Below are positions 7,202 to 22,752 of a stretch of DNA of 64,000 bases, in pieces. The stretch is from NCBI RefSeq assembly GCF_013122565.1, contig NZ_CP053258.1. One strand, given 5' to 3'. The notes under the pieces are model-generated. The model saw nothing but the letters and a program-made list of their open reading frames with translations, did not search any database and was not told the origin of the DNA. This DNA comes from Escherichia coli (lineage in GTDB: Bacteria; Pseudomonadota; Gammaproteobacteria; Enterobacterales; Enterobacteriaceae). The position numbers and the translations under genes were made by a program. Each line of letters begins with the position of its first letter. Positions within the stretch are counted from its first letter, which is position 1.

Positions 7202-7344
7202 AAAAACACCCCTTCTTATGTTTGCTGTCGCGCAGGCTGGAAGCCCGAGGTTTTTTGTTAATGTGGCGGCAGAGGTAGCCGGACCTTGTGGATAGTGCGA
7301 AATCTGGCACTGAATCGGTTAACTGTCCAGTCGTCGGCCTTTTG

Positions 7345-7521
7345 TGTGATATTAGTCACATAAATATAGGGGGTAGAGAGGTAATTGACGTGATGTCCAT
7401 CACAAAACACTTGTGTAAAAAAGCAACAAGCCGGCTGTTTTCGCTAAAAATGGCATTTAAATGTGAGTAATGTCACATTTTTGTTTTGATGGTTTGTTGA
7501 ATCTTTGTGATCTGAATCACA
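7345..7521. promoter_or_regulatory. mtlA promoter region with CRP-consensus sites
   Basis: TGTGA-N6-TCACA matches at 7345..7360 (tgtgatattagtcaca) and 7506..7521 (tgtgatctgaatcaca); near-match at 7389..7404 (cgtgatgtccatcaca). The mtl operon is known to be CRP-dependent with several CRP sites. Confidence 0.7.
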
Positions 7522-7737
7522 AGATATTTTCTTACGGCGTTCAGCTGATGTGATCTACAGCATGTTATGCCTTCGTCATAAAATCGTTATGTAACTAAGC
7601 AACTCATCACCTCTAAAAATTATTCTTTGGTGTTATGGCGAGAATCGCGAACCCGGATTATTGTCAAAATATCAGCCTGACTCCCTTCTGGCTGCCAGCC
7701 AAAAAACAACACTGATAAACGTGAATCCGAGGCAGAT

Positions 7738-8100
7738 ATGTTTCTAAACTATTTCGCGTTAGGAGTGCTGATCTTCGTCTTTCTGGTGATTTTTTATGGA
7801 ATCATCGCGATACATGACATCCCTTATCTGATTGCCAAAAAGCGCAACCATCCCCATGCCGACGCTATTCATACGGCGGGCTGGGTGAGCCTGTTTACTC
7901 TGCATGTTATCTGGCCGTTTCTGTGGATTTGGGCGACGCTCTATCAACCGGAGCGCGGGTGGGGCATGCAGTCACATGTTGCGTCGCAGGAGAAAGCGAC
8001 TGACCCGGAAATCGCCGCACTTTCTGACCGAATTTCCCGGCTGGAGCACCAACTCGCCGCCGAGAAAAAGACTGACTATTCCACGTTCCCGGAGATCTAA
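7738..8100 (+). CDS. yibI: DUF3302 small inner-membrane protein YibI
   Basis: 120-aa [48 protein letters not shown]...; stop is 2 nt before the yibH start. Confidence 0.85.
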
Positions 8101-8102
8101 TT

Positions 8103-9239
8103 ATGGATCTATTGATTGTTTTAACTTACGTGGCGCTGGCGTGGGCGGTCTTTAAAATCTTCCGCATTCCAGTAAATCAGTGGACGCTGGCGACGGCGGC
8201 GCTGGGAGGCGTGTTTCTGGTGAGTGGTTTGATTTTGTTGATGAACTACAACCACCCTTACACTTTTACCGCGCAAAAGGCTGTGATAGCGATCCCCATC
8301 ACGCCACAGGTGACGGGAATTGTTACTGAAGTCACTGACAAGAATAATCAGCTTATTCAAAAGGGCGAGGTACTTTTTAAGCTCGACCCGGTTCGTTACC
8401 AGGCGCGAGTTGACAGACTTCAGGCTGACCTGATGACGGCGACGCATAATATAAAGACGCTGCGCGCCCAGCTCACTGAAGCGCAGGCCAACACCACCCA
8501 GGTTTCAGCGGAGCGCGACCGTCTGTTTAAAAATTATCAACGTTATCTGAAAGGCAGCCAGGCGGCGGTGAATCCGTTCTCGGAACGTGACATCGACGAT
8601 GCGCGGCAAAATTTCCTCGCGCAGGATGCGCTGGTGAAAGGCTCGGTGGCGGAGCAGGCGCAGATCCAGAGCCAGCTCGACAGTATGGTTAACGGCGAGC
8701 AATCGCAGATTGTGAGCTTAAGAGCGCAACTTACTGAAGCAAAATATAATCTTGAGCAGACTGTCATTCGCGCGCCGAGCAATGGCTACGTTACTCAGGT
8801 ACTGATCCGCCCAGGCACATACGCAGCTGCCTTGCCGCTGCGTCCGGTGATGGTCTTCATCCCCGAGCAAAAACGGCAAATTGTCGCCCAATTTCGGCAA
8901 AACTCGCTGTTACGTCTGAAACCCGGCGATGATGCGGAAGTGGTGTTTAACGCGCTACCTGGGCAGGTGTTTCACGGCAAACTGACCAGTATTTTACCTG
9001 TCGTGCCAGGCGGTTCTTATCAGGCGCAGGGGGTATTGCAATCATTAACGGTCGTGCCCGGCACGGACGGTGTGCTGGGAACCATTGAACTGGACCCTAA
9101 CGATGATATCGATGCCTTACCCGACGGCATCTACGCCCAGGTGGCAGTTTACTCCGACCATTTCAGCCATGTTTCGGTGATGCGTAAGGTGCTGCTAAGA
9201 ATGACCAGTTGGATGCATTATCTTTATTTGGATCATTGA
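8103..9239 (+). CDS. yibH: HlyD-family membrane-fusion-like protein YibH
   Basis: 378-aa ORF; N-terminal TM segment, central coiled coil, C-terminal beta domain; paralog of the ORF at 16271..17407. Confidence 0.85.
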
Positions 9240-9309
9240 GACTTATATCACCTGTGTTTTGCGTGAGCCTGAGCCATACTGATATTTTTCCTCGCACAAA
9301 GGACTCGGC

Positions 9310-9918
9310 ATGAAACTCGTCGGTAGCTACACCAGCCCGTTTGTACGCAAACTTTCTATTCTGTTGTTAGAAAAGGGCATAACTTTCGAATTTATTAATG
9401 AACTGCCCTATAACGCGGACAACGGCGTGGCGCAATTTAACCCGTTAGGAAAAGTGCCGGTGCTGGTGACCGAAGAGGGCGAATGCTGGTTTGATTCGCC
9501 GATCATCGCTGAATATATTGAGTTAATGAATGTCGCTCCGGCGATGTTGCCGCGCGATCCGCTGGAGTCGTTGCGGGTGCGCAAAATTGAGGCGCTGGCG
9601 GATGGCATCATGGATGCCGGGCTGGTATCGGTGCGTGAACAGGCGCGTCCGGCGGCGCAGCAGTCTGAAGATGAATTGTTACGTCAGCGTGAGAAAATCA
9701 ACCGTAGCCTTGATGTGCTGGAAGGATATCTGGTCGATGGCACACTCAAAACCGATACGGTCAATCTGGCGACTATCGCCATTGCCTGTGCCGTTGGATA
9801 TCTCAATTTCCGCCGCGTTGCGCCAGGCTGGTGTGTCGACCGCCCACACTTAATCAAACTGGTCGAAAACCTGTTTAGCCGCGAAAGTTTTGCTCGCACC
9901 GAACCGCCAAAGGCTTGA
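9310..9918 (+). CDS. yibF: Glutathione S-transferase family protein YibF
   Basis: 202-aa [31 protein letters not shown]... (GST N-terminal thioredoxin-like fold). Confidence 0.85.
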
Positions 9919-10015
9919 TGCGCGATATGTCCTCCTGACCCATCTCACGTTACAATCCGTGGTTATGTTAAACGCCCTTCTCCGTGTGAGAGGGCCTTGA
10001 TCAGCCAGGTTTCCT

Positions 10016-11407
10016 ATGACAACCGAAACGCGTTCCCTCTATAGTCAACTTCCGGCTATTGATCGCTTATTGCGCGATAGCTCCTTCCTTTCTTTGCGTG
10101 ATACTTATGGTCACACCCGCGTAGTGGAATTGCTGCGTCAGATGCTTGACGAAGCGCGAGAAGTGATTCGTGACAGCCAGACGCTGCCTGCGTGGTGTGA
10201 AAACTGGGCGCAAGAAGTCGATGCCCGGTTGACGAAAGAGGCGCAGAGCGCGCTGCGTCCGGTGATCAACCTGACGGGAACCGTGCTGCATACCAACCTT
10301 GGTCGAGCTTTACAGGCGGAAGCCGCGGTGGAAGCCGTTGCGCAGGCTATGCGTTCGCCAGTGACCCTCGAGTACGATCTGGACGACGCCGGACGCGGAC
10401 ATCGCGATCGGGCGCTGGCGCAGTTGCTGTGCCGCATTACGGGGGCGGAAGATGCCTGTATCGTTAATAACAATGCGGCGGCGGTGTTATTGATGTTGGC
10501 GGCCACTGCCAGCGGGAAAGAGGTGGTGGTATCTCGCGGCGAACTGGTGGAGATTGGCGGCGCGTTTCGTATTCCCGATGTTATGCGTCAGGCAGGCTGC
10601 ACCCTACACGAAGTAGGGACCACCAACCGCACGCACGCGAATGATTATCGTCAGGCGGTGAATGAAAATACCGCGCTGTTGATGAAAGTACATACCAGTA
10701 ACTACAGCATTCAGGGGTTCACCAAAGCGATAGACGAAGCGGAACTGGTGGCGCTCGGCAAAGAACTGGATATTCCCGTAGTGACTGATTTAGGCAGTGG
10801 CTCGCTGGTCGATCTTAGCCAGTACGGTTTGCCGAAAGAGCCAATGCCGCAGGAGTTGATTGCGGCGGGCGTCAGTCTGGTGAGCTTCTCCGGCGACAAG
10901 CTGTTAGGCGGGCCGCAGGCAGGAATTATTGTTGGTAAAAAAGAGATGATCGCCCGCCTGCAAAGCCACCCGCTGAAGCGTGCATTACGCGCGGATAAAA
11001 TGACCCTTGCGGCGCTGGAAGCTACGTTGCGTCTTTATTTACACCCTGAAGCTCTGAGTAAAAAATTACCGACCCTGCGCCTGCTTACCCGCAGCGCAGA
11101 GGTCATTCAAATCCAGGCACAACGTTTACAGGCTCCCCTTGCCGCACATTACGGCGCGGAGTTTGCAGTCCAGGTTATGCCATGTCTTTCGCAGATTGGC
11201 AGTGGTTCGCTGCCGGTTGATCGCCTGCCGAGCGCGGCATTAACGTTTACACCCCATGATGGACGCGGTAGCCACCTTGAGTCATTAGCCGCCCGCTGGC
11301 GTGAATTGCCAGTGCCGGTGATTGGTCGTATTTATGACGGACGATTGTGGCTGGATTTACGCTGCCTTGAAGATGAGCAACGGTTTTTGGAGATGTTGTT
11401 GAAATGA
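10016..11407 (+). CDS. selA: L-seryl-tRNA(Sec) selenium transferase
   Basis: 463-aa [45 protein letters not shown]...; ATGA overlap with selB. Confidence 0.95.
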
Positions 11408-13248
11408 TTATTGCGACTGCCGGACACGTTGACCACGGCAAAACAACCTTATTGCAGGCGATTACTGGCGTAAATGCCGATCGTCTGCCGGAAGAAAAAA
11501 AGCGCGGCATGACTATCGATCTCGGCTATGCCTACTGGCCGCAGCCGGATGGCCGCGTGCCTGGTTTTATCGACGTGCCCGGTCATGAAAAGTTTCTTTC
11601 CAACATGCTGGCGGGCGTTGGTGGTATCGATCACGCGCTGTTGGTGGTGGCGTGCGATGACGGCGTGATGGCACAGACCCGTGAGCATCTGGCGATTTTG
11701 CAGCTGACCGGTAACCCGATGCTGACAGTGGCGCTGACCAAGGCCGATCGCGTGGACGAAGCGCGTGTTGATGAGGTTGAACGTCAGGTAAAGGAGGTGC
11801 TGCGGGAATACGGTTTTGCTGAGGCAAAACTGTTTATCACCGCAGCAACCGAAGGTCGGGGAATTGATGCCCTGCGCGAGCATCTGCTTCAGTTACCAGA
11901 ACGTGAGCACGCCAGCCAACATAGTTTCCGCCTCGCGATCGACCGCGCATTTACCGTAAAAGGTGCCGGGCTGGTCGTCACCGGTACGGCGTTAAGCGGG
12001 GAAGTGAAGGTAGGCGATTCACTCTGGCTGACTGGTGTAAATAAACCGATGCGTGTACGTGCACTGCATGCACAAAACCAGCCAACAGAAACCGCTCATG
12101 CCGGCCAGCGTATCGCGCTTAACATCGCGGGGGATGCGGAAAAAGAGCAGATTAACCGTGGCGACTGGCTGCTTGCCGATGTGCCGCCAGAGCCGTTCAC
12201 GCGGGTGATTGTCGAGCTTCAAACCCATACGCCGCTGACCCAGTGGCAGCCGCTGCATATTCACCACGCCGCCAGCCACGTTACGGGACGCGTTTCGCTG
12301 CTGGAAGATAACCTTGCCGAGCTGGTGTTCGACACGCCGCTGTGGCTGGCGGATAACGATCGCTTAGTGTTGCGCGATATCTCGGCCCGCAATACGCTCG
12401 CGGGGGCGCGTGTGGTGATGCTTAACCCGCCGCGTCGCGGTAAACGTAAGCCGGAATATCTGCAATGGCTGGCGTCACTGGCACGGGCGCAGAGCGATGC
12501 CGATGCGTTATCTGTTCATCTGGAACGCGGCGCGGTTAACCTTGCGGATTTCGCCTGGGCGCGCCAGCTCAACGGCGAAGGGATGCGCGAATTGCTGCAA
12601 CAGCCGGGCTATATTCAGGCTGGTTATAGCTTGTTGAATGCGCCGGTTGCCGCCCGCTGGCAGCGGAAAATTCTCGACACATTAGCGACTTATCATGAGC
12701 AACATCGCGATGAACCTGGCCCTGGGCGCGAACGTCTGCGACGTATGGCGTTGCCAATGGAAGATGAAGCGCTGGTACTGTTGCTGATTGAAAAGATGCG
12801 CGAAAGCGGCGACATCCTCAGTCATCACGGTTGGCTGCATCTGCCAGATCACAAAGCGGGCTTCAGCGAAGAGCAGCAGGCCATCTGGCAAAAAGCAGAG
12901 CCGCTGTTTGGTGACGAGCCGTGGTGGGTGCGTGATCTGGCAAAAGAGACGGGTACCGACGAGCAGGCAATGCGCCTGACTCTACGCCAGGCGGCGCAGC
13001 AAGGAATAATTACCGCGATCGTTAAAGATCGTTATTACCGTAACGATCGGATTGTCGAATTTGCCAATATGATCCGCGATCTCGATCAGGAATGTGGCTC
13101 GACCTGCGCGGCGGATTTCCGCGATCGCTTAGGCGTAGGCCGAAAGCTGGCAATTCAGATTCTGGAATATTTTGACCGCATTGGCTTTACACGTCGTCGT
13201 GGAAATGATCATTTATTGCGCGACGCATTATTATTTCCGGAAAAATAA
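11404..13248 (+). CDS. selB: Selenocysteine-specific translation elongation factor
   Basis: 614-aa [25 protein letters not shown]... (GTPase G1 motif), length matches SelB. Confidence 0.95.
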
Positions 13249-13303
13249 GGCGTTGATTAATTCAAATTAAACGAGAAGTAGATAAAAATTGTTATAAATA
13301 AAA

Positions 13304-13328
13304 AAGCACATTTCAATGTGCTTTTTTA
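13304..13328 (+). terminator. Rho-independent terminator downstream of selB
   Basis: Stem aagcacat (13304..13311) / atgtgctt (13316..13323), loop ttca, followed by T-run. Confidence 0.7.
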
Positions 13329-13419
13329 TTGCGAATGATTAAAAGAGTAATAGCGCTCATATTTTAAATTAAAATATTTTGTAAGCTTCGCGTCATTTTA
13401 TACTCGTTCAGGGTGTTTT

Positions 13420-13696
13420 ATGGCAGCCTCCATCTTTTTTATCCCTTCAGATAATGCCTTTGGCGTAGATTCTTTAAAAGATGCAATGAATATGATGATA
13501 TGGAATATGGCTTTCACCGTACATGGATGAACTGACGAAGAAAGTGGATATCCCGGCAGGCCTACGCGACCTGAACGTGAAAGAAGAAGATTTCGCGGTA
13601 CTGGCGACTAATGCCCTGAAAGATGCCTGTGGCTTTACTAACCCGATCCAGGCAACTCACGAAGAAATTGTGGCGATTTATCGCGCCGCAATGTAA
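13420..13696 (+). pseudogene. yiaY: Remnant of Fe-dependent alcohol dehydrogenase gene yiaY (N-terminal ~35 codons and C-terminal 56 codons, internal deletion with frame change)
   Basis: 13420..13530 encodes MAASIFFIPSDNAFGVDSLKDAMNMM...HG then stop; from 13526 in the +1 frame [56 protein letters not shown] to the stop at 13694..13696. Both ends resemble YiaY termini as I recall them; the ~300 central codons are missing. Confidence 0.7.
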
Positions 13697-13860
13697 TCAT
13701 CATTCCCACAACGGCTGGCAAATTGTCAGCCGCTTTTTCAACTATCTCTGTAATCCTTGCCCGTAAATTCGTGATAGCTGTCGTAAAGCTGTTACCGACT
13801 GGCGAAGATTTCGCCAGTCACGTCTACCCTTGTTATACCTCACACCGCAAGGAGACGATC

Positions 13861-15399
13861 ATGACCAATAATCCCCCTTCAGCACAGATTAAGCCCGGCG
13901 AGTATGGTTTCCCCCTCAAGTTAAAAGCTCGCTATGACAACTTTATTGGCGGCGAATGGGTAGCCCCTGCCGACGGCGAGTATTACCAGAATCTGACGCC
14001 GGTGACCGGGCAGCTGCTGTGCGAAGTGGCGTCTTCGGGCAAACGAGACATCGATCTGGCGCTGGATGCTGCGCACAAAGTGAAAGATAAATGGGCGCAC
14101 ACCTCGGTGCAGGATCGCGCGGCGATTCTGTTTAAGATTGCCGATCGAATGGAACAAAACCTTGAGCTGTTAGCGACGGCTGAAACCTGGGATAACGGCA
14201 AACCCATTCGCGAAACCAGTGCTGCCGACGTGCCGCTGGCGATTGACCATTTTCGCTATTTCGCCTCGTGTATTCGGGCGCAGGAAGGTGGGATCAGTGA
14301 AGTTGATAGCGAAACCGTGGCCTATCATTTCCATGAACCGTTAGGCGTGGTGGGGCAGATTATCCCGTGGAACTTCCCGCTGCTGATGGCGAGCTGGAAA
14401 ATGGCTCCCGCGCTGGCGGCGGGCAACTGTGTGGTGCTGAAACCCGCACGTCTTACCCCGCTTTCTGTACTGCTGCTAATGGAAATCGTCGGTGATTTAC
14501 TGCCGCCGGGCGTGGTGAACGTGGTCAACGGCGCAGGTGGGGAAATTGGCGAATATCTGGCGACCTCGAAACGCATCGCCAAAGTGGCGTTTACCGGCTC
14601 AACGGAAGTGGGCCAACAAATTATGCAATACGCCACGCAAAACATTATTCCGGTGACGCTGGAGCTGGGCGGCAAATCGCCAAATATCTTCTTTGCTGAC
14701 GTGATGGATGAAGAAGATGCCTTTTTCGATAAAGCGCTGGAAGGCTTTGCACTGTTTGCCTTTAACCAGGGCGAAGTTTGCACCTGTCCAAGCCGTGCTT
14801 TAGTGCAGGAATCTATCTACGAACGCTTTATGGAACGCGCCATCCGCCGTGTCGAAAGCATTCGTAGCGGTAACCCGCTCGACAGCGTGACGCAAATGGG
14901 CGCGCAGGTATCTCACGGGCAACTGGAAACCATCCTCAATTACATTGATATCGGCAAAAAAGAGGGCGCAGATGTGCTTACCGGCGGGCGGCGCAAGCTG
15001 CTGGAAGGCGAACTGAAAGATGGCTACTACCTCGAACCGACGATTTTGTTTGGTCAGAACAATATGCGCGTGTTCCAGGAGGAGATTTTTGGCCCGGTGC
15101 TGGCGGTGACCACCTTTAAAACGATGGATGAGGCGCTGGAGCTGGCGAACGACACGCAATATGGCCTGGGCGCGGGCGTCTGGAGCCGCAACGGTAATCT
15201 GGCCTATAAGATGGGGCGCGGCATTCAGGCCGGGCGCGTGTGGACCAACTGCTATCACGCTTACCCGGCACATGCTGCGTTTGGTGGCTACAAACAATCA
15301 GGTATCGGTCGCGAAACCCACAAGATGATGCTGGAGCATTACCAGCAAACCAAGTGCCTGCTGGTGAGCTACTCAGATAAACCGTTGGGGCTGTTCTGA
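13861..15399 (+). CDS. aldB: Aldehyde dehydrogenase B
   Basis: ORF track 13723..15399; start trimmed to [34 protein letters not shown] (512 aa); ALDH family with catalytic Cys context. Confidence 0.95.
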
Positions 15400-15427
15400 T
15401 ATAAGAAGCTGGTCGCATTGGGTATTC

Positions 15428-15518
15428 ATTGCCTGATGCGACGCTTACGCGTCTTATCATGCCTACGGGAACCTGACCGTAGGCCGGATAAGGCGTACAC
15501 GCCGCATCCGGCATAAAC
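15428..15518. repeat. REP elements downstream of aldB
   Basis: gcctgatgcgacgcttacgcgtcttatcatgcctac and gtaggccggataaggcgtacacgccgcatccggc REP-type palindromes. Confidence 0.8.
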
Positions 15519-15941
15519 AAAGCGCACGTTGTTACAATTTACGTTTTAAACCTACGTGCGCAATAACCCAGACTACGCCAACAGAAGTGCGTTTCTGGGG
15601 CGTGTTTTGTCAGGAGTTTAATCTCGCGTTTCGATGGTGAGCGGGCGAACCAGGCCGTAAATCACCATTGGCGTTCCGAGGCCAATCAGCAATAAACGGT
15701 AGATAATTGAAGGTTTAATACGCTTAATCTGTATTGTGGATGTTTTACTGGAGTTATTCATTAGTTTGGCCAATAGTTCTATTATTTCAATATGATAAGT
15801 CTCAGTCTGTTGAAAATCCACGCAGTACACTTCAGAAAGTATATAAAAAACAATATGTCGTTATATAAATAAGGAAATTGCACTGCATCATGGCATTTCA
15901 TAATATGCGTTAATTGTTTTTTTATATTCTTTGAGGAAAAT

Positions 15942-16265
15942 ATGTTCCTGGACTATTTTGCACTGGGAGTGCTTATTTTTGTATTTCTGGTGATATTCTA
16001 TGGGATTATTATTTTACATGATATTCCCTACCTGATTGCTAAAAAACGTAATCATCCACATGCCGACGCCATTCATGTTGCTGGTTGGGTGAGTCTTTTT
16101 ACGCTGCATGTTATCTGGCCATTTTTGTGGATTTGGGCCACGCTTTACCGCCCGGAGCGGGGATGGGGAATGCAAAACCATGACTCCTCCGTTGTGCAAC
16201 TACAACAGCGTATTGCCGGGCTGGAGAAACAGCTCGCTGACATCAAATCCTCTTCTGCCGAGTAA
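15942..16265 (+). CDS. yiaW: DUF3302 small inner-membrane protein YiaW (paralog of YibI)
   Basis: 107-aa [48 protein letters not shown]..., nearly identical N-terminus to the ORF at 7738. Confidence 0.85.
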
Positions 16266-16270
16266 TACTT

Positions 16271-17407
16271 ATGGATTTACTGATTATTTTGACCTATGTG
16301 GCTTTCGCATGGGCAATGTTTAAGATCTTCAAAATTCCTGTAAATAAATGGACCATTCCCACCGCGGCCCTGGGTGGAATATTTATTGTCAGCGGTTTAA
16401 TTCTGTTAATGAACTATAACCATCCGTATACCTTTAAAGCGCAAAAAGCGGTTATTTCTATTCCTGTTGTCCCACAGGTGACAGGCGTGGTGATCGAAGT
16501 GACGGATAAGAAAAATACGCTGATTAAAAAAGGTGAGGTGCTATTTCGACTGGACCCGACGCGTTATCAGGCGCGGGTGGATCGGCTGATGGCGGATATC
16601 GTTACCGCAGAACATAAACAGCGGGCGTTGGGCGCAGAGTTAGATGAGATGGCGGCGAATACTCAGCAGGCAAAGGCCACGCGGGATAAATTCGCTAAAG
16701 AGTATCAGCGTTACGCACGCGGCAGCCAGGCGAAAGTAAACCCGTTTTCAGAACGCGATATTGATGTGGCGCGGCAAAATTATCTGGCGCAGGAAGCCTC
16801 CGTAAAGTCATCGGCGGCGGAACAAAAACAGATCCAGAGCCAGCTGGATAGCCTGGTGTTGGGTGAACATTCTCAAATCGCCAGCCTGAAAGCGCAGCTC
16901 GCGGAAGCAAAATATAACCTTGAGCAGACGATAGTGCGTGCGCCGAGCGATGGTTATGTGACCCAGGTGCTGATTCGTCCGGGTACCTATGCCGCGTCGC
17001 TGCCGCTACGTCCGGTGATGGTGTTTATACCCGATCAGAAACGACAAATTGTGGCGCAGTTCCGTCAGAACTCCTTGCTGCGACTGGCTCCTGGCGACGA
17101 TGCGGAAGTGGTGTTTAATGCTCTGCCAGGTAAGGTATTCAGCGGTAAGCTGGCAGCCATTAGTCCAGCCGTTCCCGGCGGAGCTTATCAGTCGACCGGC
17201 ACCTTACAGACGTTAAACACAGCGCCGGGTTCAGATGGCGTTATCGCGACCATTGAACTGGATGAGCATACTGATTTGAGCGCATTACCAGACGGTATTT
17301 ACGCCCAGGTGGCGGTCTACTCTGATCATTTCAGCCATGTCTCGGTGATGCGCAAAGTACTGTTACGCATGACCAGCTGGGTGCATTACCTTTATCTCGA
17401 TCATTAA
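16271..17407 (+). CDS. yiaV: HlyD-family membrane-fusion-like protein YiaV (paralog of YibH)
   Basis: 378-aa [39 protein letters not shown]...; same length and architecture as the ORF at 8103. Confidence 0.85.
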
Positions 17408-18378
17408 TCTTCGCTTTCCGCCGCTTGTTCAGGCCGCAGTTGCTGCGACTGAGCAAGCTGGTGGCGAATTTCACGCAGCATTTCATCCAGCACATACTGG
17501 ACCCGCCAGGGCTGGTATTCCCGTTTACGGAAGATAGCCACCAGATCCAGCCACCATTCATACGGGTGCTGAAAGCAGGGCACCAGCGTGCCGTCTTGCA
17601 GGTCGCTCTGCACACTTTTGTCTGGCGCAAACACAATCCCCAGGTGATTTCGTGCCAGCTCCAGCGCAGATTGCGTGTTGTCGCAAACGTAATTTCCCTT
17701 CACGCGATAATCCCGCACATCTTTACTCCCGGCGACGTTGAAGCGCCAGATATTCGCGTCGTCGATCATCATCGAGTCGATCAAAATACAGGAGTGATGT
17801 TCGAGTTCGTCAGGACGGCTAATGGGATGTTTCGCAAGATAGCGCTGGCTGGCATAAGCGGTTACGGCATATTGTGTAATAAAACTGGCAACCAGCGATT
17901 CATCTTTTGGTGGGGCGTAGCTGATTAAAACATCACAATCATCGGGAAATTCGACGCCTTCATAAAAGGCATTACGCTCAAGATTGCAGGTTTTTAGCGA
18001 TAAGGTGATATCACCGATATCTTTAATTTTATCGATAACATGTTTGGATAAATAGGTAATTATGCCGGTTGGGGCGTAGATGGTGACCCGACCACGTTTC
18101 TCATGCTTATAATCTGCAATAAAATTATTAAGCTGCTCGTTTCTGTCCAGCATGTCGTTGATGTACGGTAATAGCGCGGTGCCAAAAGGTGTGAGCATCA
18201 GCTGCCGGGTGGTGCGGTCAAAGACTTTTAAACCCACTTTTGATTCAAAATCAGCAAGATATTTGCTGACGTTGGCCTGTGCGATGCCAAGTACAGTCGC
18301 GGCATGGCTGATATTTTCACTGGCAGCGATTACCGAGATAATTTTTAACTCCCGGTACTTAAGTTGTAATTTTGTCAT
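17404..18378 (-). CDS. yiaU: LysR-family transcriptional regulator YiaU
   Basis: 324-aa [48 protein letters not shown]... (N-terminal HTH); 4-nt convergent overlap with yiaV. Confidence 0.85.
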
Positions 18379-18500
18379 CGCAACAGCCCAATTATATATA
18401 ATTTTATATATTACTATATAAATATGAATCTTGCACCGGAGAAATTGTAAGCATTACTATGCCGACTCTTTTTATCTTATTTTAAAATGGAATACCGGAC

Positions 18501-21351: not shown

Positions 21352-22752
21352 TTAAGGCTGTACATGACGCTGACGCAGGTCGGTAGCTATGCGTGACATC
21401 ATAGGATTATTGAGTTTGCAAAAGCGGATCGCCCCTGCCAGCAGCAGGTGAAATAGCGCAGGCAGTAATGTTTCCATCGCCGCGATCCCGCCAAGCGAAC
21501 TGGCGGTCTGGTTTTCCATGCCTGGCTGGTAGGCGACAAAAATAAACAGCAGGCTGATGATCCCGGCGCTGGAGGCCCAGGCCAGCTTGATGAAAAACAG
21601 ATTGAAGGCGAAGTTCATGCCGGAAGAACGTACGCGGGTTTTCCACTCGCCGTAGTCATCGGCAAAGGCCATCAATGAGAAGTGCAGTGGCAATGTGAAG
21701 CCAAGAATTACGCCATTACCGAGGATCACCGCCAGCCACAGCGTTTGATAAGCCGGGCCGGAGGGCAGGAACCACATCAACACCGCCAGCGCAGCGAGGA
21801 GCAGGTTGGTGTAGTAGTAAATTTTGACGGTATCGAAACGCCGCGTTAACGGGCTGACAATCACCGAGCCGATAATGGAGGCGAAGGTGACCATGGTGAA
21901 GAACAGCGACGTGTAGCCCGTACTGCCTTGTAAGACGTAGGTAATGAAGTACATATACCCACCGCCGCGAATATTAAAGACGTTAATCAGCAGGAAAGAC
22001 ATGACCAGCATCAGCAGCAGTTGGTCGTTGTTCCGCAGCCCGGCAAGATGTTCGCGCAGGGTAAATTTCCCCATTGTGGAGAGCGGCACCCGTTCACGAA
22101 CCCAGAAAAAACAGCACAGGAACATCACCACGGCAATGGCGCACAATACGCCGACGCCCAGTTGATAGCCGCGTGCAGCGTTGCCCTGACCGAAGAGATC
22201 TACCATCCACGGTAAGCCTACCGAAACCAGAAATCCCGCTACGCCGCAGAGAACGAATCGCCAGGACTGGCAGGAGATCACTTCATTGTGGCGGGTGGTC
22301 ATGGTGTTGATCAGCGCGCAGTACGGTACGTTGATGGCGGTATAACCGACTGAAAGGAGCAGGTAAGTACCGAACGCCCAGGCGATTTTTACTCCCATGC
22401 TGGCATCTGGCACGGTGAACGTCAGGATGCCGATAATGCCGATGGGAATGGCAATCCATAGCTGCCACGGACGAAAGCGCCCCCAGCGACTTTGCGTCCG
22501 GTCGGCAATGACGCCCATCACCGGGTCGGAGATGGCATCAAACACGCGCAGTGCAATAAACAGCGTGCCAACCAGCGCCGGAGTTAATCCAAAAACGTCG
22601 GTGTAGAAAAAGGTGAGAAAATTCATGATCAGGCAAGTTATTACGGTGCCGCCTGCGTCACCCAGGCCGTAGCCTATTTTTTCCCGTACAGATAACGCAT
22701 CGTCAATTTTACCTTTAGCGATATCAGCGGTAGTAATCGGTGTAGAGGTCAT
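21352..22752 (-). CDS. MFS transporter, glycoside-pentoside-hexuronide (GPH):cation symporter family
   Basis: 466-aa ORF; N-terminal [10 protein letters not shown]...[20 protein letters not shown] motif typical of MelB/UidB-type symporters; about 12 TM segments; stop overlaps the SD of the downstream hydrolase. Confidence 0.8.

Follow-up and report, generated by a model that had tools for sequence, protein, structure and literature searches.

The stretch of DNA analyzed here, referred to below as the window, comprises 64,000 nucleotides (nt) from Escherichia coli (contig NZ_CP053258.1 of assembly GCF_013122565.1) and carries two gene pairs of the same design, yibI-yibH and yiaW-yiaV, which lie on either side of yibF, selA, selB and aldB (Table 1). 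An earlier note on this DNA, made from the sequence alone, had described each pair as a gene for a small DUF3302 protein followed by one for an HlyD-like protein, and had placed all four genes in the same orientation with very short distances within the pairs. The calls of open reading frames (ORFs) agree with it in the positions, the orientation and the tight coupling, the stop-to-start gaps amounting to 2 nt for yibI-yibH and 5 nt for yiaW-yiaV. The family assignments are likewise confirmed by matches to Pfam models: YibI and YiaW reach 140 and 147 bits with PF11742 (DUF3302), compared to a cut-off of 32, and cover the whole 77-position model, and both YibH and YiaV match CusB_dom_1, HlyD_D23 and HlyD_3 above the respective cut-offs, as is expected for periplasmic adaptors of the HlyD or membrane fusion protein (MFP) family. 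The first gene of the series is also named yibI in the annotation of the near-identical strain C9, and the last 4 nt of yiaV overlap the convergent gene yiaU. As judged from the ORFs and the annotation, no ABC, RND, MFS or FUSC pump gene adjoins either pair in the window, in accordance with the earlier description, and the nearest MFS gene (21352-22752) is located about 4 kb past yiaV. The statement that neither pair has an established function also holds, since yibI, yibH, yiaW and yiaV were all still listed as uncharacterized in a 2024 survey of the y-ome (PMC11551758).

Table 1. Coordinates of the two DUF3302-adaptor gene pairs and of the genes lying between and next to them.
Feature	Position	Strand	Description and basis
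yibI	7738-8100	+	ORF; 120 aa; DUF3302 protein with two transmembrane helices, a conserved RNHPH turn between them and a C-terminal coiled-coil tail
yibH	8103-9239	+	ORF; 378 aa; HlyD/MFP-family periplasmic adaptor
yibF	9310-9918	+	ORF and strain C9 annotation; between the modules, part of neither
selA	10016-11407	+	ORF and strain C9 annotation; between the modules, part of neither
selB	11404-13248	+	ORF and strain C9 annotation; between the modules, part of neither
yiaY pseudogene	13420-13696	+	5′ remnant about 13420-13527, 3′ remnant 13528-13696
aldB	13861-15399	+	512 aa, from an internal Met of ORF 13723-15399; strain C9 annotation
yiaW	15942-16265	+	ORF; 107 aa; DUF3302 protein, yibI paralog
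yiaV	16271-17407	+	ORF; 378 aa; HlyD/MFP-family adaptor, yibH paralog
yiaU	17404-18378	-	ORF; LysR-type regulator; convergent with yiaV

The two modules are paralogous, as had been proposed, with a similarity far beyond chance in pairwise alignments of DNA and protein. YibI and YiaW share 74% of their residues (E 8e-62), and YibH and YiaV are 77% identical across all 378 residues without a single gap. On the DNA level, the identity is 70% over the aligned part with a longest perfect run of 20 nt, and the regions upstream of yibI and yiaW do not align to each other. The best stretches are found at the 5′ end of the small gene (79% over 242 nt) and at the 3′ end of the adaptor gene (84% over 124 nt), so that the identity described as visibly high for the beginning of the small gene is real, but only moderate. 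In this 5′ stretch the identities at the first, second and third codon positions are 92%, 96% and 49%, third-position identity between the modules is generally 42-49%, and the proportion of differing synonymous sites (pS) amounts to 0.78 in each of the two genes and ranges between 0.69 and 0.82 over all windows of 63 codons, which means that synonymous sites are saturated. The better-matching stretches are therefore due to amino acid constraint rather than to recent duplication or conversion, and recent gene conversion as the origin of the more similar ends was rejected on the basis of the same pS and third-position values. The nonsynonymous divergence (dN) between the paralogs reaches 0.18 in the adaptor but only 0.045 in the DUF3302 domain; both pairs are under purifying selection and expressed. 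In a simple midpoint-rooted neighbor-joining tree of the adaptors, YibH of E. coli groups with the proteins from Yersinia (82% identity) and Erwinia (79%), and YiaV with its Citrobacter ortholog (93%), which is encoded in a matching selB-yiaY-aldB...yiaW-yiaV-yiaU-yiaT synteny. The split between the paralogs is therefore older than the divergence of the families of Enterobacterales, and yibIH and yiaWV are paralogous operons of ancient divergence instead of recent repeats.

These figures also bear on the suggestion that the pairs act as direct repeats of about 1.5 kb whose recombination deletes or duplicates the selAB-aldB segment, with the deletion in yiaY as a related scar. The units are co-oriented, the starts of the small genes lie 8204 nt apart, and the 3′ end of the adaptor gene offers the closest match, all of which fits such a proposal. 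Recombination by RecA/RecBCD in E. coli depends on a perfectly identical stretch of about 23-27 bp, known as the minimal efficient processing segment, and mismatch repair reduces it by orders of magnitude at a divergence above 10-20%. Under these limits the run of 20 nt and the overall identity of 70% fall short, so that the modules are no realistic recombination substrate, and the saturated pS values in all windows leave no room for conversion tracts. The earlier note had itself named a pairwise alignment as the check on this idea and old, diverged paralogs as the outcome that would speak against it, and this is the outcome that the alignment gave. Note that a survey of 5426 complete E. coli genomes points in the same direction: selA-selB is present at more than 80% coverage in 5425 of them and is single-copy in all but one, and no hybrid or cross-matching genes between the modules occur among the matches in these genomes. 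Both yibI and yibH are found in 5383 genomes, and both yiaW and yiaV in 3769. Two truncated copies that were inspected are associated with insertion sequences (ISKpn26 within yibI and IS1 beside a yiaW stub), and strains without yiaWV miss the whole yiaWVUT block, aldB being followed there by the GH127-MFS-AraC genes, so that the absence of the pair reflects a difference in the yiaWVUT segment. The modules are thus without realistic potential to recombine with each other, and deletion or duplication of the intervening genes through them has to be regarded as extremely improbable. A horizontal gain of yiaWV was considered as well and rejected, because its GC content is ordinary and the synteny with Citrobacter is kept; the 30% of E. 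coli genomes without the pair are better explained by loss of yiaWVUT. In K-12-like strains an RhsA element is inserted between yibH and yibF, so that the spacing of the modules (about 8 kb) is strain-specific rather than constant.

As to yiaY, alignment to the intact gene of strain CFSAN064036 and comparison of the translations reveal an internal deletion of about 0.9 kb. The 5′ remnant is decayed, with 75% identity to intact alleles, and the 3′ part consists of the last 57 codons, ending at 13696. The deletion does lie inside the interval between the modules, as had been stated, but is unrelated to them: it is 4.2 kb and 2.2 kb away from the two modules, its ends fall within yiaY itself, and the modules do not form its boundaries. 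The exact junction is common to only two of the 5426 genomes, those of the cow strain C9 and the frog strain ET201, which places the window in a rare lineage.

A view on the relatedness of the adaptors to characterized families shows partial matches only. In NCBIfam, YibH and YiaV reach 112-114 bits with the EmrA/EmrK subfamily model (cut-off 391), 111-112 bits with MdtN (cut-off 376), 63-75 bits with AaeA (cut-off 400) and 53-57 bits with EmrA (cut-off 563); the best partial match is EmrA/EmrK for YibH and MdtN for YiaV, with EmrA/EmrK following within a fraction of a bit. As judged from these sequence scores, YibH and YiaV share a broad clade with EmrA/EmrK, MdtN and AaeA, but are not members of any of these named families. 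The best sequence match of the adaptor in the PDB is EmrA (7.5e-12). The AlphaFold2 (AF2) model of YiaV, with a mean confidence (pLDDT) of 86.5, contains predicted transmembrane (TM) helices at residues 2-19 and 28-50, a helical hairpin at 97-218 with helices of about 56 residues each, comparable in length to that of EmrA, and a C-terminal helix at 355-374. Strands at 53-94 and 221-350 flank the helices of the hairpin, corresponding to lipoyl and β-barrel domains arranged around it. When searched with Foldseek, the model matches best the EmrA chains in cryo-EM structures of the EmrAB-TolC complex (8zal/8zar; E 9e-21, TM-score 0.64-0.71); at E ≤ 0.001 there are 71 PDB matches, and all 50 among the matches listed are adaptor (MFP) chains. 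The lipoyl, hairpin and β-barrel parts typical of HlyD-family adaptors are thus recovered by Pfam, AF2 and Foldseek alike, and the two predicted N-terminal helices of YiaV correspond to the inner-membrane anchor of such proteins. The location next to a transporter gene, a further property of adaptor genes, is missing at both E. coli pairs; among the 69 loci from other genomes described below, a FUSC gene takes this place in 12 and an MMPL-like gene in 3.

The DUF3302 partner is predicted with even higher confidence: the AF2 model of YiaW (pLDDT 91) consists of helices at residues 2-35 and 41-68, which form a hairpin via the RNHPH turn, and of a third helix near the C-terminus (81-106), and a search of structure databases found no solved structure that matches DUF3302. 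Across the family alignment, a core of high conservation gives way to a variable linker and then to a coiled-coil tail; P29, H38, P39, A43, S51, W59, P60 and W65 are invariant. A proton-channel motif of the HxxxW type, as known from M2 and apparently present in YiaW (H45...W49), was considered and rejected, because many members carry G, Q, E, R, L or Y in place of H45. Two possible origins of the small protein were also discarded on the basis of profile comparisons with hhalign, namely as a diverged AaeX/DUF1656 protein (probability 0.1) and as a piece split from a FUSC transporter (probability 0.2-0.4% with YeeA and AaeB).

Conservation is distributed unevenly over both proteins. In the adaptor, the mean pairwise identity is highest in the segment of TM1, loop and TM2 (0.77) and in the C-terminal helix (0.71), intermediate in the lipoyl and barrel domains (about 0.60), and lowest in the hairpin (0.44); in DUF3302 the turn (0.70) and TM2, which has the highest value (0.75), stand against a tail with only 0.18. 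The underlying alignment is biased toward Pseudomonas, and a comparison of YiaV with all other sequences ranks the regions alike. That the membrane parts are the most conserved argues that DUF3302 and the TM region of the adaptor form one specific membrane complex, and the pattern would fit such a membrane-embedded complex rather than a generic membrane anchor. The adaptors further fall into two length classes, which differ by about 60 residues in the hairpin (alignment columns about 119-193, residues about 119-191 of YiaV): short ones of 319 aa occur in Pseudomonas, Moritella, Psychromonas and Colwellia, and long ones of 355-382 aa in E. coli, Vibrio, Bradyrhizobium and Microvirga. Provided that docking to an outer-membrane factor takes place, adaptors of the two classes would bridge periplasmic gaps of different width.

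The DUF3302 family is distributed across Proteobacteria and comprises 883 clusters at 50% identity; among the best-scoring 150 of these clusters no transporter-sized fusion was present, all proteins having 70-229 aa. The genomic context was examined in 80 loci from a single DUF3302 profile scan, in 69 of which genes could be called. The scan retrieved mostly Pseudomonas in addition to several gamma- and alphaproteobacterial genera, since the first sequence of the query alignment was Pseudomonas-like. An adaptor gene lies directly 3′ of the DUF3302 gene in 68 of the 69 callable loci, with a gap of less than 30 nt in 66. The adjacency also extends to Bradyrhizobium, Rhizobium, Vibrio, Aeromonas, Pseudoalteromonas, Erwinia, Pantoea, Yersinia and Citrobacter, and to a variant of DUF3302 with three TM helices. 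The 526 neighboring proteins, by comparison, fall into 230 families, 178 of which are singletons, and a Pfam scan of 194 representatives matched more than 250 Pfam families, none of them more than three times (MFS_1 and ABC_tran twice each). No recurrent pump family was detected among the 230 neighbor families at the 69 loci. Since the neighbors are variable and only the coupling to the adaptor is constant, the orphan status of the pairs is the rule for the DUF3302 family and not a peculiarity of E. coli. The retention of two copies is not unique to E. coli either and must have arisen more than once, as Pseudomonas resinovorans (L016, L045), Pseudomonas sp. JM0905a (L011, L048) and P. taiwanensis (L012, L062) also carry two DUF3302-adaptor loci per genome, which stand in different contexts within the respective genome.

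Pump-like neighbors occur in some of these loci. Twelve loci from the P. fluorescens/syringae group (L020, L022, L024, L026, L029, L032, L034, L036, L041, L043, L051 and L070) contain a half-size FUSC/FUSC_2 gene as the second gene after DUF3302, on the same strand and 1-128 nt downstream of the adaptor gene. The whole block consists of genes for an aldehyde dehydrogenase, DUF3302, the adaptor, a YeeA-like FUSC protein, an EamA protein (on the opposite strand) and an AsnC-type regulator. The Pseudomonas FUSC protein is 31% identical to YeeA of E. coli (E 2e-36), compared to an E value of only 1e-5 with AaeB, and the order of small TM protein, MFP and FUSC protein is that of aaeX-aaeA-aaeB. In three loci an MMPL/RND-like gene lies directly upstream, inside a DUF1329 cluster, and one metagenomic contig shows an OEP (TolC-family) gene at the same position.

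Several other associations were observed around the pair. A second recurrent neighborhood, common to alpha- and gammaproteobacteria, consists of SulP, PPK2 and AI-2E genes: a plasmid of Rhizobium sp. Pop5 carries the series DUF3302-HlyD-SulP-PPK2-AI-2E (L104, 4881-10198), two Pseudomonas loci (L037, L038) have SulP and then PPK2 after the pair, and PPK2 and AI-2E are found in 7 and 6 loci overall. A gene for a predicted DUF3313 lipoprotein directly precedes the DUF3302 gene, with the same orientation, at about seven Pseudomonas loci (L045, L048, L062, L064 and others), and its product could be an accessory envelope component. A DUF3302 subfamily of about 180-190 aa (P0134, P0138 and relatives; gene at 7001-7567 of L094) is extended at the N-terminus, ahead of the conserved domain, and contains an additional hydrophobic segment there, which is likely to be a third TM helix, and is also followed directly by an adaptor gene. 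Finally, genes for aldehyde dehydrogenases occur near the pair, no more than a few genes away, in 23 Pseudomonas loci (context clusters C2 and C5), and so does aldB in E. coli and Citrobacter. The pattern is suggestive, but phylogenetically non-independent, and a functional connection of the pair to this enzyme was judged to be weak, because three subfamilies of it and only two Pseudomonas clades are involved, and because two genes separate aldB and yiaW in Citrobacter.

In comparison to known systems, the adaptors resemble most closely EmrA (8zal/8zar and 4tko), with which they have in common the TM anchor, the lipoyl and β-barrel domains and the long α-hairpin at about 20% identity. Unlike EmrA, YiaV and YibH contain a pair of TM helices at the N-terminus and a conserved helix at the C-terminus, and they are encoded together with a DUF3302 protein, whereas EmrA goes with the pump EmrB. 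The gene arrangement recalls the efflux operons of the FUSC/ArAE type, namely AaeXAB, YdhIJK and MdtNOP, in which a gene for a small protein with two TM helices is likewise followed by a tightly coupled MFP gene, and at the 12 Pseudomonas loci the FUSC-family gene completes the order of AaeXAB. However, DUF3302 is analogous to AaeX in position without being homologous to it, as the only Pfam match is PF07869 for AaeX and PF11742 for YiaW and YibI; the FUSC gene is absent beside both E. coli pairs and in most taxa; and the FUSC proteins near DUF3302 are of the half-size YeeA type, not of the 655-aa AaeB type. AcrZ of the AcrAB-TolC system offers another parallel as a small inner-membrane protein tied to an adaptor-containing system. 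AcrZ is a peptide with a single TM helix that binds the pump and is encoded away from acrAB, whereas DUF3302 proteins have two TM helices and a coiled coil, are encoded directly 5′ of the adaptor and are far more conserved.

The interpretation favored here, at a probability of roughly 0.55, is that the two ancient paralog pairs each supply an EmrA/AaeA-type adaptor and, as its obligate partner, a DUF3302 protein, which together would form a TolC-docking scaffold, while the transporter is encoded elsewhere. According to the structural models, YibH and YiaV are EmrA-type adaptors anchored in the inner membrane by two N-terminal TM helices. The rest of each protein comprises lipoyl and β-barrel domains, an α-hairpin of a length that suffices for contact with TolC and, at the C-terminus, an amphipathic helix. 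The gene of either adaptor is translationally coupled to that of a dedicated and extremely conserved DUF3302 protein with two TM helices (YibI or YiaW), which may join with the TM region of the adaptor into a single inner-membrane complex. For a tripartite export system of the TolC type, along the lines of AaeXAB or EmrAB, this complex would provide the scaffold, and the gene for the transporter subunit would have no fixed place next to the pair; the most promising candidate for this subunit in E. coli is YeeA, an orphan FUSC protein of half size. As the adaptor is kept together with DUF3302 and only rarely found beside a pump across hundreds of proteobacterial lineages, the small protein is probably the key partner of the adaptor. 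DUF3302 and its adaptor represent a widespread pump-less variant of the tripartite efflux architecture, for which YeeA is a concrete candidate partner.

Several observations weigh against this proposal. Adaptor genes usually have a transporter gene as a neighbor, but none adjoins the pair in E. coli or in the majority of genomes; a YeeA-like neighbor occurs in a single Pseudomonas clade only, so that its 12 occurrences in 69 loci are phylogenetically non-independent; and other lineages have SulP, PPK2, AI-2E or a Na+/H+ exchanger downstream. The scores of YibH and YiaV with the EmrA, MdtN and AaeA models are far under the equivalog cut-offs, DUF3302 shows no detectable homology to AaeX/DUF1656, and the genome sample is not only biased toward Pseudomonas, but was also analyzed with heuristic gene calls. 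According to the main rival explanation, the module would be self-sufficient, with DUF3302 as the sole and obligate partner in the inner membrane and the oligomer itself acting, for example, as a gated TolC-docking conduit or as an envelope-spanning tether or stress device. The pair is the only unit conserved across alpha- and gammaproteobacteria, the 230 families of neighbors contain no recurrent transporter, DUF3302 is conserved beyond the needs of an accessory peptide (as seen from its dN and from the values for turn and TM2), the TM region is the most conserved part of the adaptor, and the reported phenotypes concern the envelope (adhesion, phage plaquing, transformation) rather than drug efflux. 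Nevertheless, no adaptors are known to work without an energized transporter, the sole conserved ionizable residue within a predicted TM helix is His56, which is Gly in some members, and the FUSC, MMPL/RND-like and OEP genes found in cis indicate that some pump-like operons do exist. A self-sufficient module is considered possible, although clearly less probable than a scaffold working with a separately encoded transporter. Still somewhat more tentative is the variant of a distinct class of envelope systems in which an adaptor of the hexamer type sits on a ring of DUF3302 proteins instead of a pump, either as a lone TolC-docking conduit or tether, or as a dock for varied transporters such as YeeA-type FUSC, SulP or AI-2E proteins.

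A further alternative regards YibH and YiaV as spare EmrA/EmrK-like adaptors for MFS pumps of the EmrB type encoded elsewhere, with DUF3302 as a minor accessory peptide like AcrZ. It would account for EmrA/EmrK as the top NCBIfam match of YibH and a near-top match of YiaV and for EmrA as the top match in the PDB and in the structural search, and an MFS gene does lie two genes away from the pair in Yersinia, with MFS_1 appearing in two neighbor families. But MFS proteins are not recurrent, accounting for only 2 of the 194 representative neighbor families, the Yersinia protein (449 aa) forms a pair with a LysR regulator of its own, and the extreme conservation of DUF3302 and its invariable coupling to the adaptor are unlike an optional accessory peptide, all of which makes this alternative rather unlikely.

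The published record on these genes consists mainly of isolated phenotypes. YiaV is listed as uncharacterized under TCDB 8.A.1.1.4 (PMC10971958), and yibH has served as a neutral site for integration (PMC5852967). Evidence that the genes are functional comes from the induction of the yibI promoter in urine, from a yibI mutant of uropathogenic E. coli, which adhered less and had a competitive index of 0.33 (PMC5404293), and from Klebsiella pneumoniae, where deletion of yibH led to fewer plaques by evolved phages (PMC11796411). A deletion of yiaW is reported to increase Ca2+-mediated transformation, as cited in PMC12844161, and an IS1 insertion in yiaW appeared during adaptation to macrophages without a phenotype of its own (PMC5495878). 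The candidate link of YiaW, YiaV, YeeA and TolC thus concerns genes with reported effects in urine fitness, phage plaquing and transformation. All four genes of the two pairs are already cataloged as y-genes, and the value of the present analysis lies in a testable statement on two uncharacterized envelope operons of E. coli.

The convergent gene yiaU codes for a regulator reported to act on yiaT, and its binding and regulation targets comprise the waa operon, yjiT, adeP, yiaT and gltD, the respective paper being silent on yiaW and yiaV (PMC9068703). An AT-rich direct repeat of 47 nt with 70% identity (family D4) occurs upstream of yiaW (15837-15883) and in the yiaU-yiaT spacer (18390-18436). 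Shared regulation via this repeat was rejected, because the similarity is probably due to chance in AT-rich DNA and yiaW is not among the YiaU targets (PMC9068703). The context of yiaU is kept in Citrobacter and Yersinia (loci L101 and L102).

The overall gene order in the window is mtlA(-), yibI, yibH, yibF, selA, selB, yiaY remnant, aldB, yiaW, yiaV, yiaU(-), yiaT and the GH127-MFS-AraC cassette, the product of yiaT being MipA-like. The gene directly 5′ of yiaW is aldB, from which it is separated by an AT-rich gap of 542 nt. Just past selB, a perfect inverted repeat of 16 nt with a loop of 2 nt (AATAAAAAAGCACATT / AATGTGCTTTTTTATT, 13297-13330) looks like a bidirectional intrinsic terminator. 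The junction between yibH and yibF (9240-9309) is without the RhsA element, whereas K-12-like strains have rhsA and accessory genes there, and many genomes therefore match a 10.5-kb query from this region (7300-17800) from yibF onward only; the best identity of the query to any complete genome is 98.1%. Past yiaT, the segment 19362-23793 encodes a GH127 glycoside hydrolase (667 aa, minus strand), an MFS transporter (466 aa, minus strand) and an AraC-type regulator (271 aa, plus strand). Some E. coli strains, such as AZ184, carry this cassette but lack yiaWVUT; the window holds both blocks, which suggests that they underwent differential loss from a fuller ancestral arrangement.

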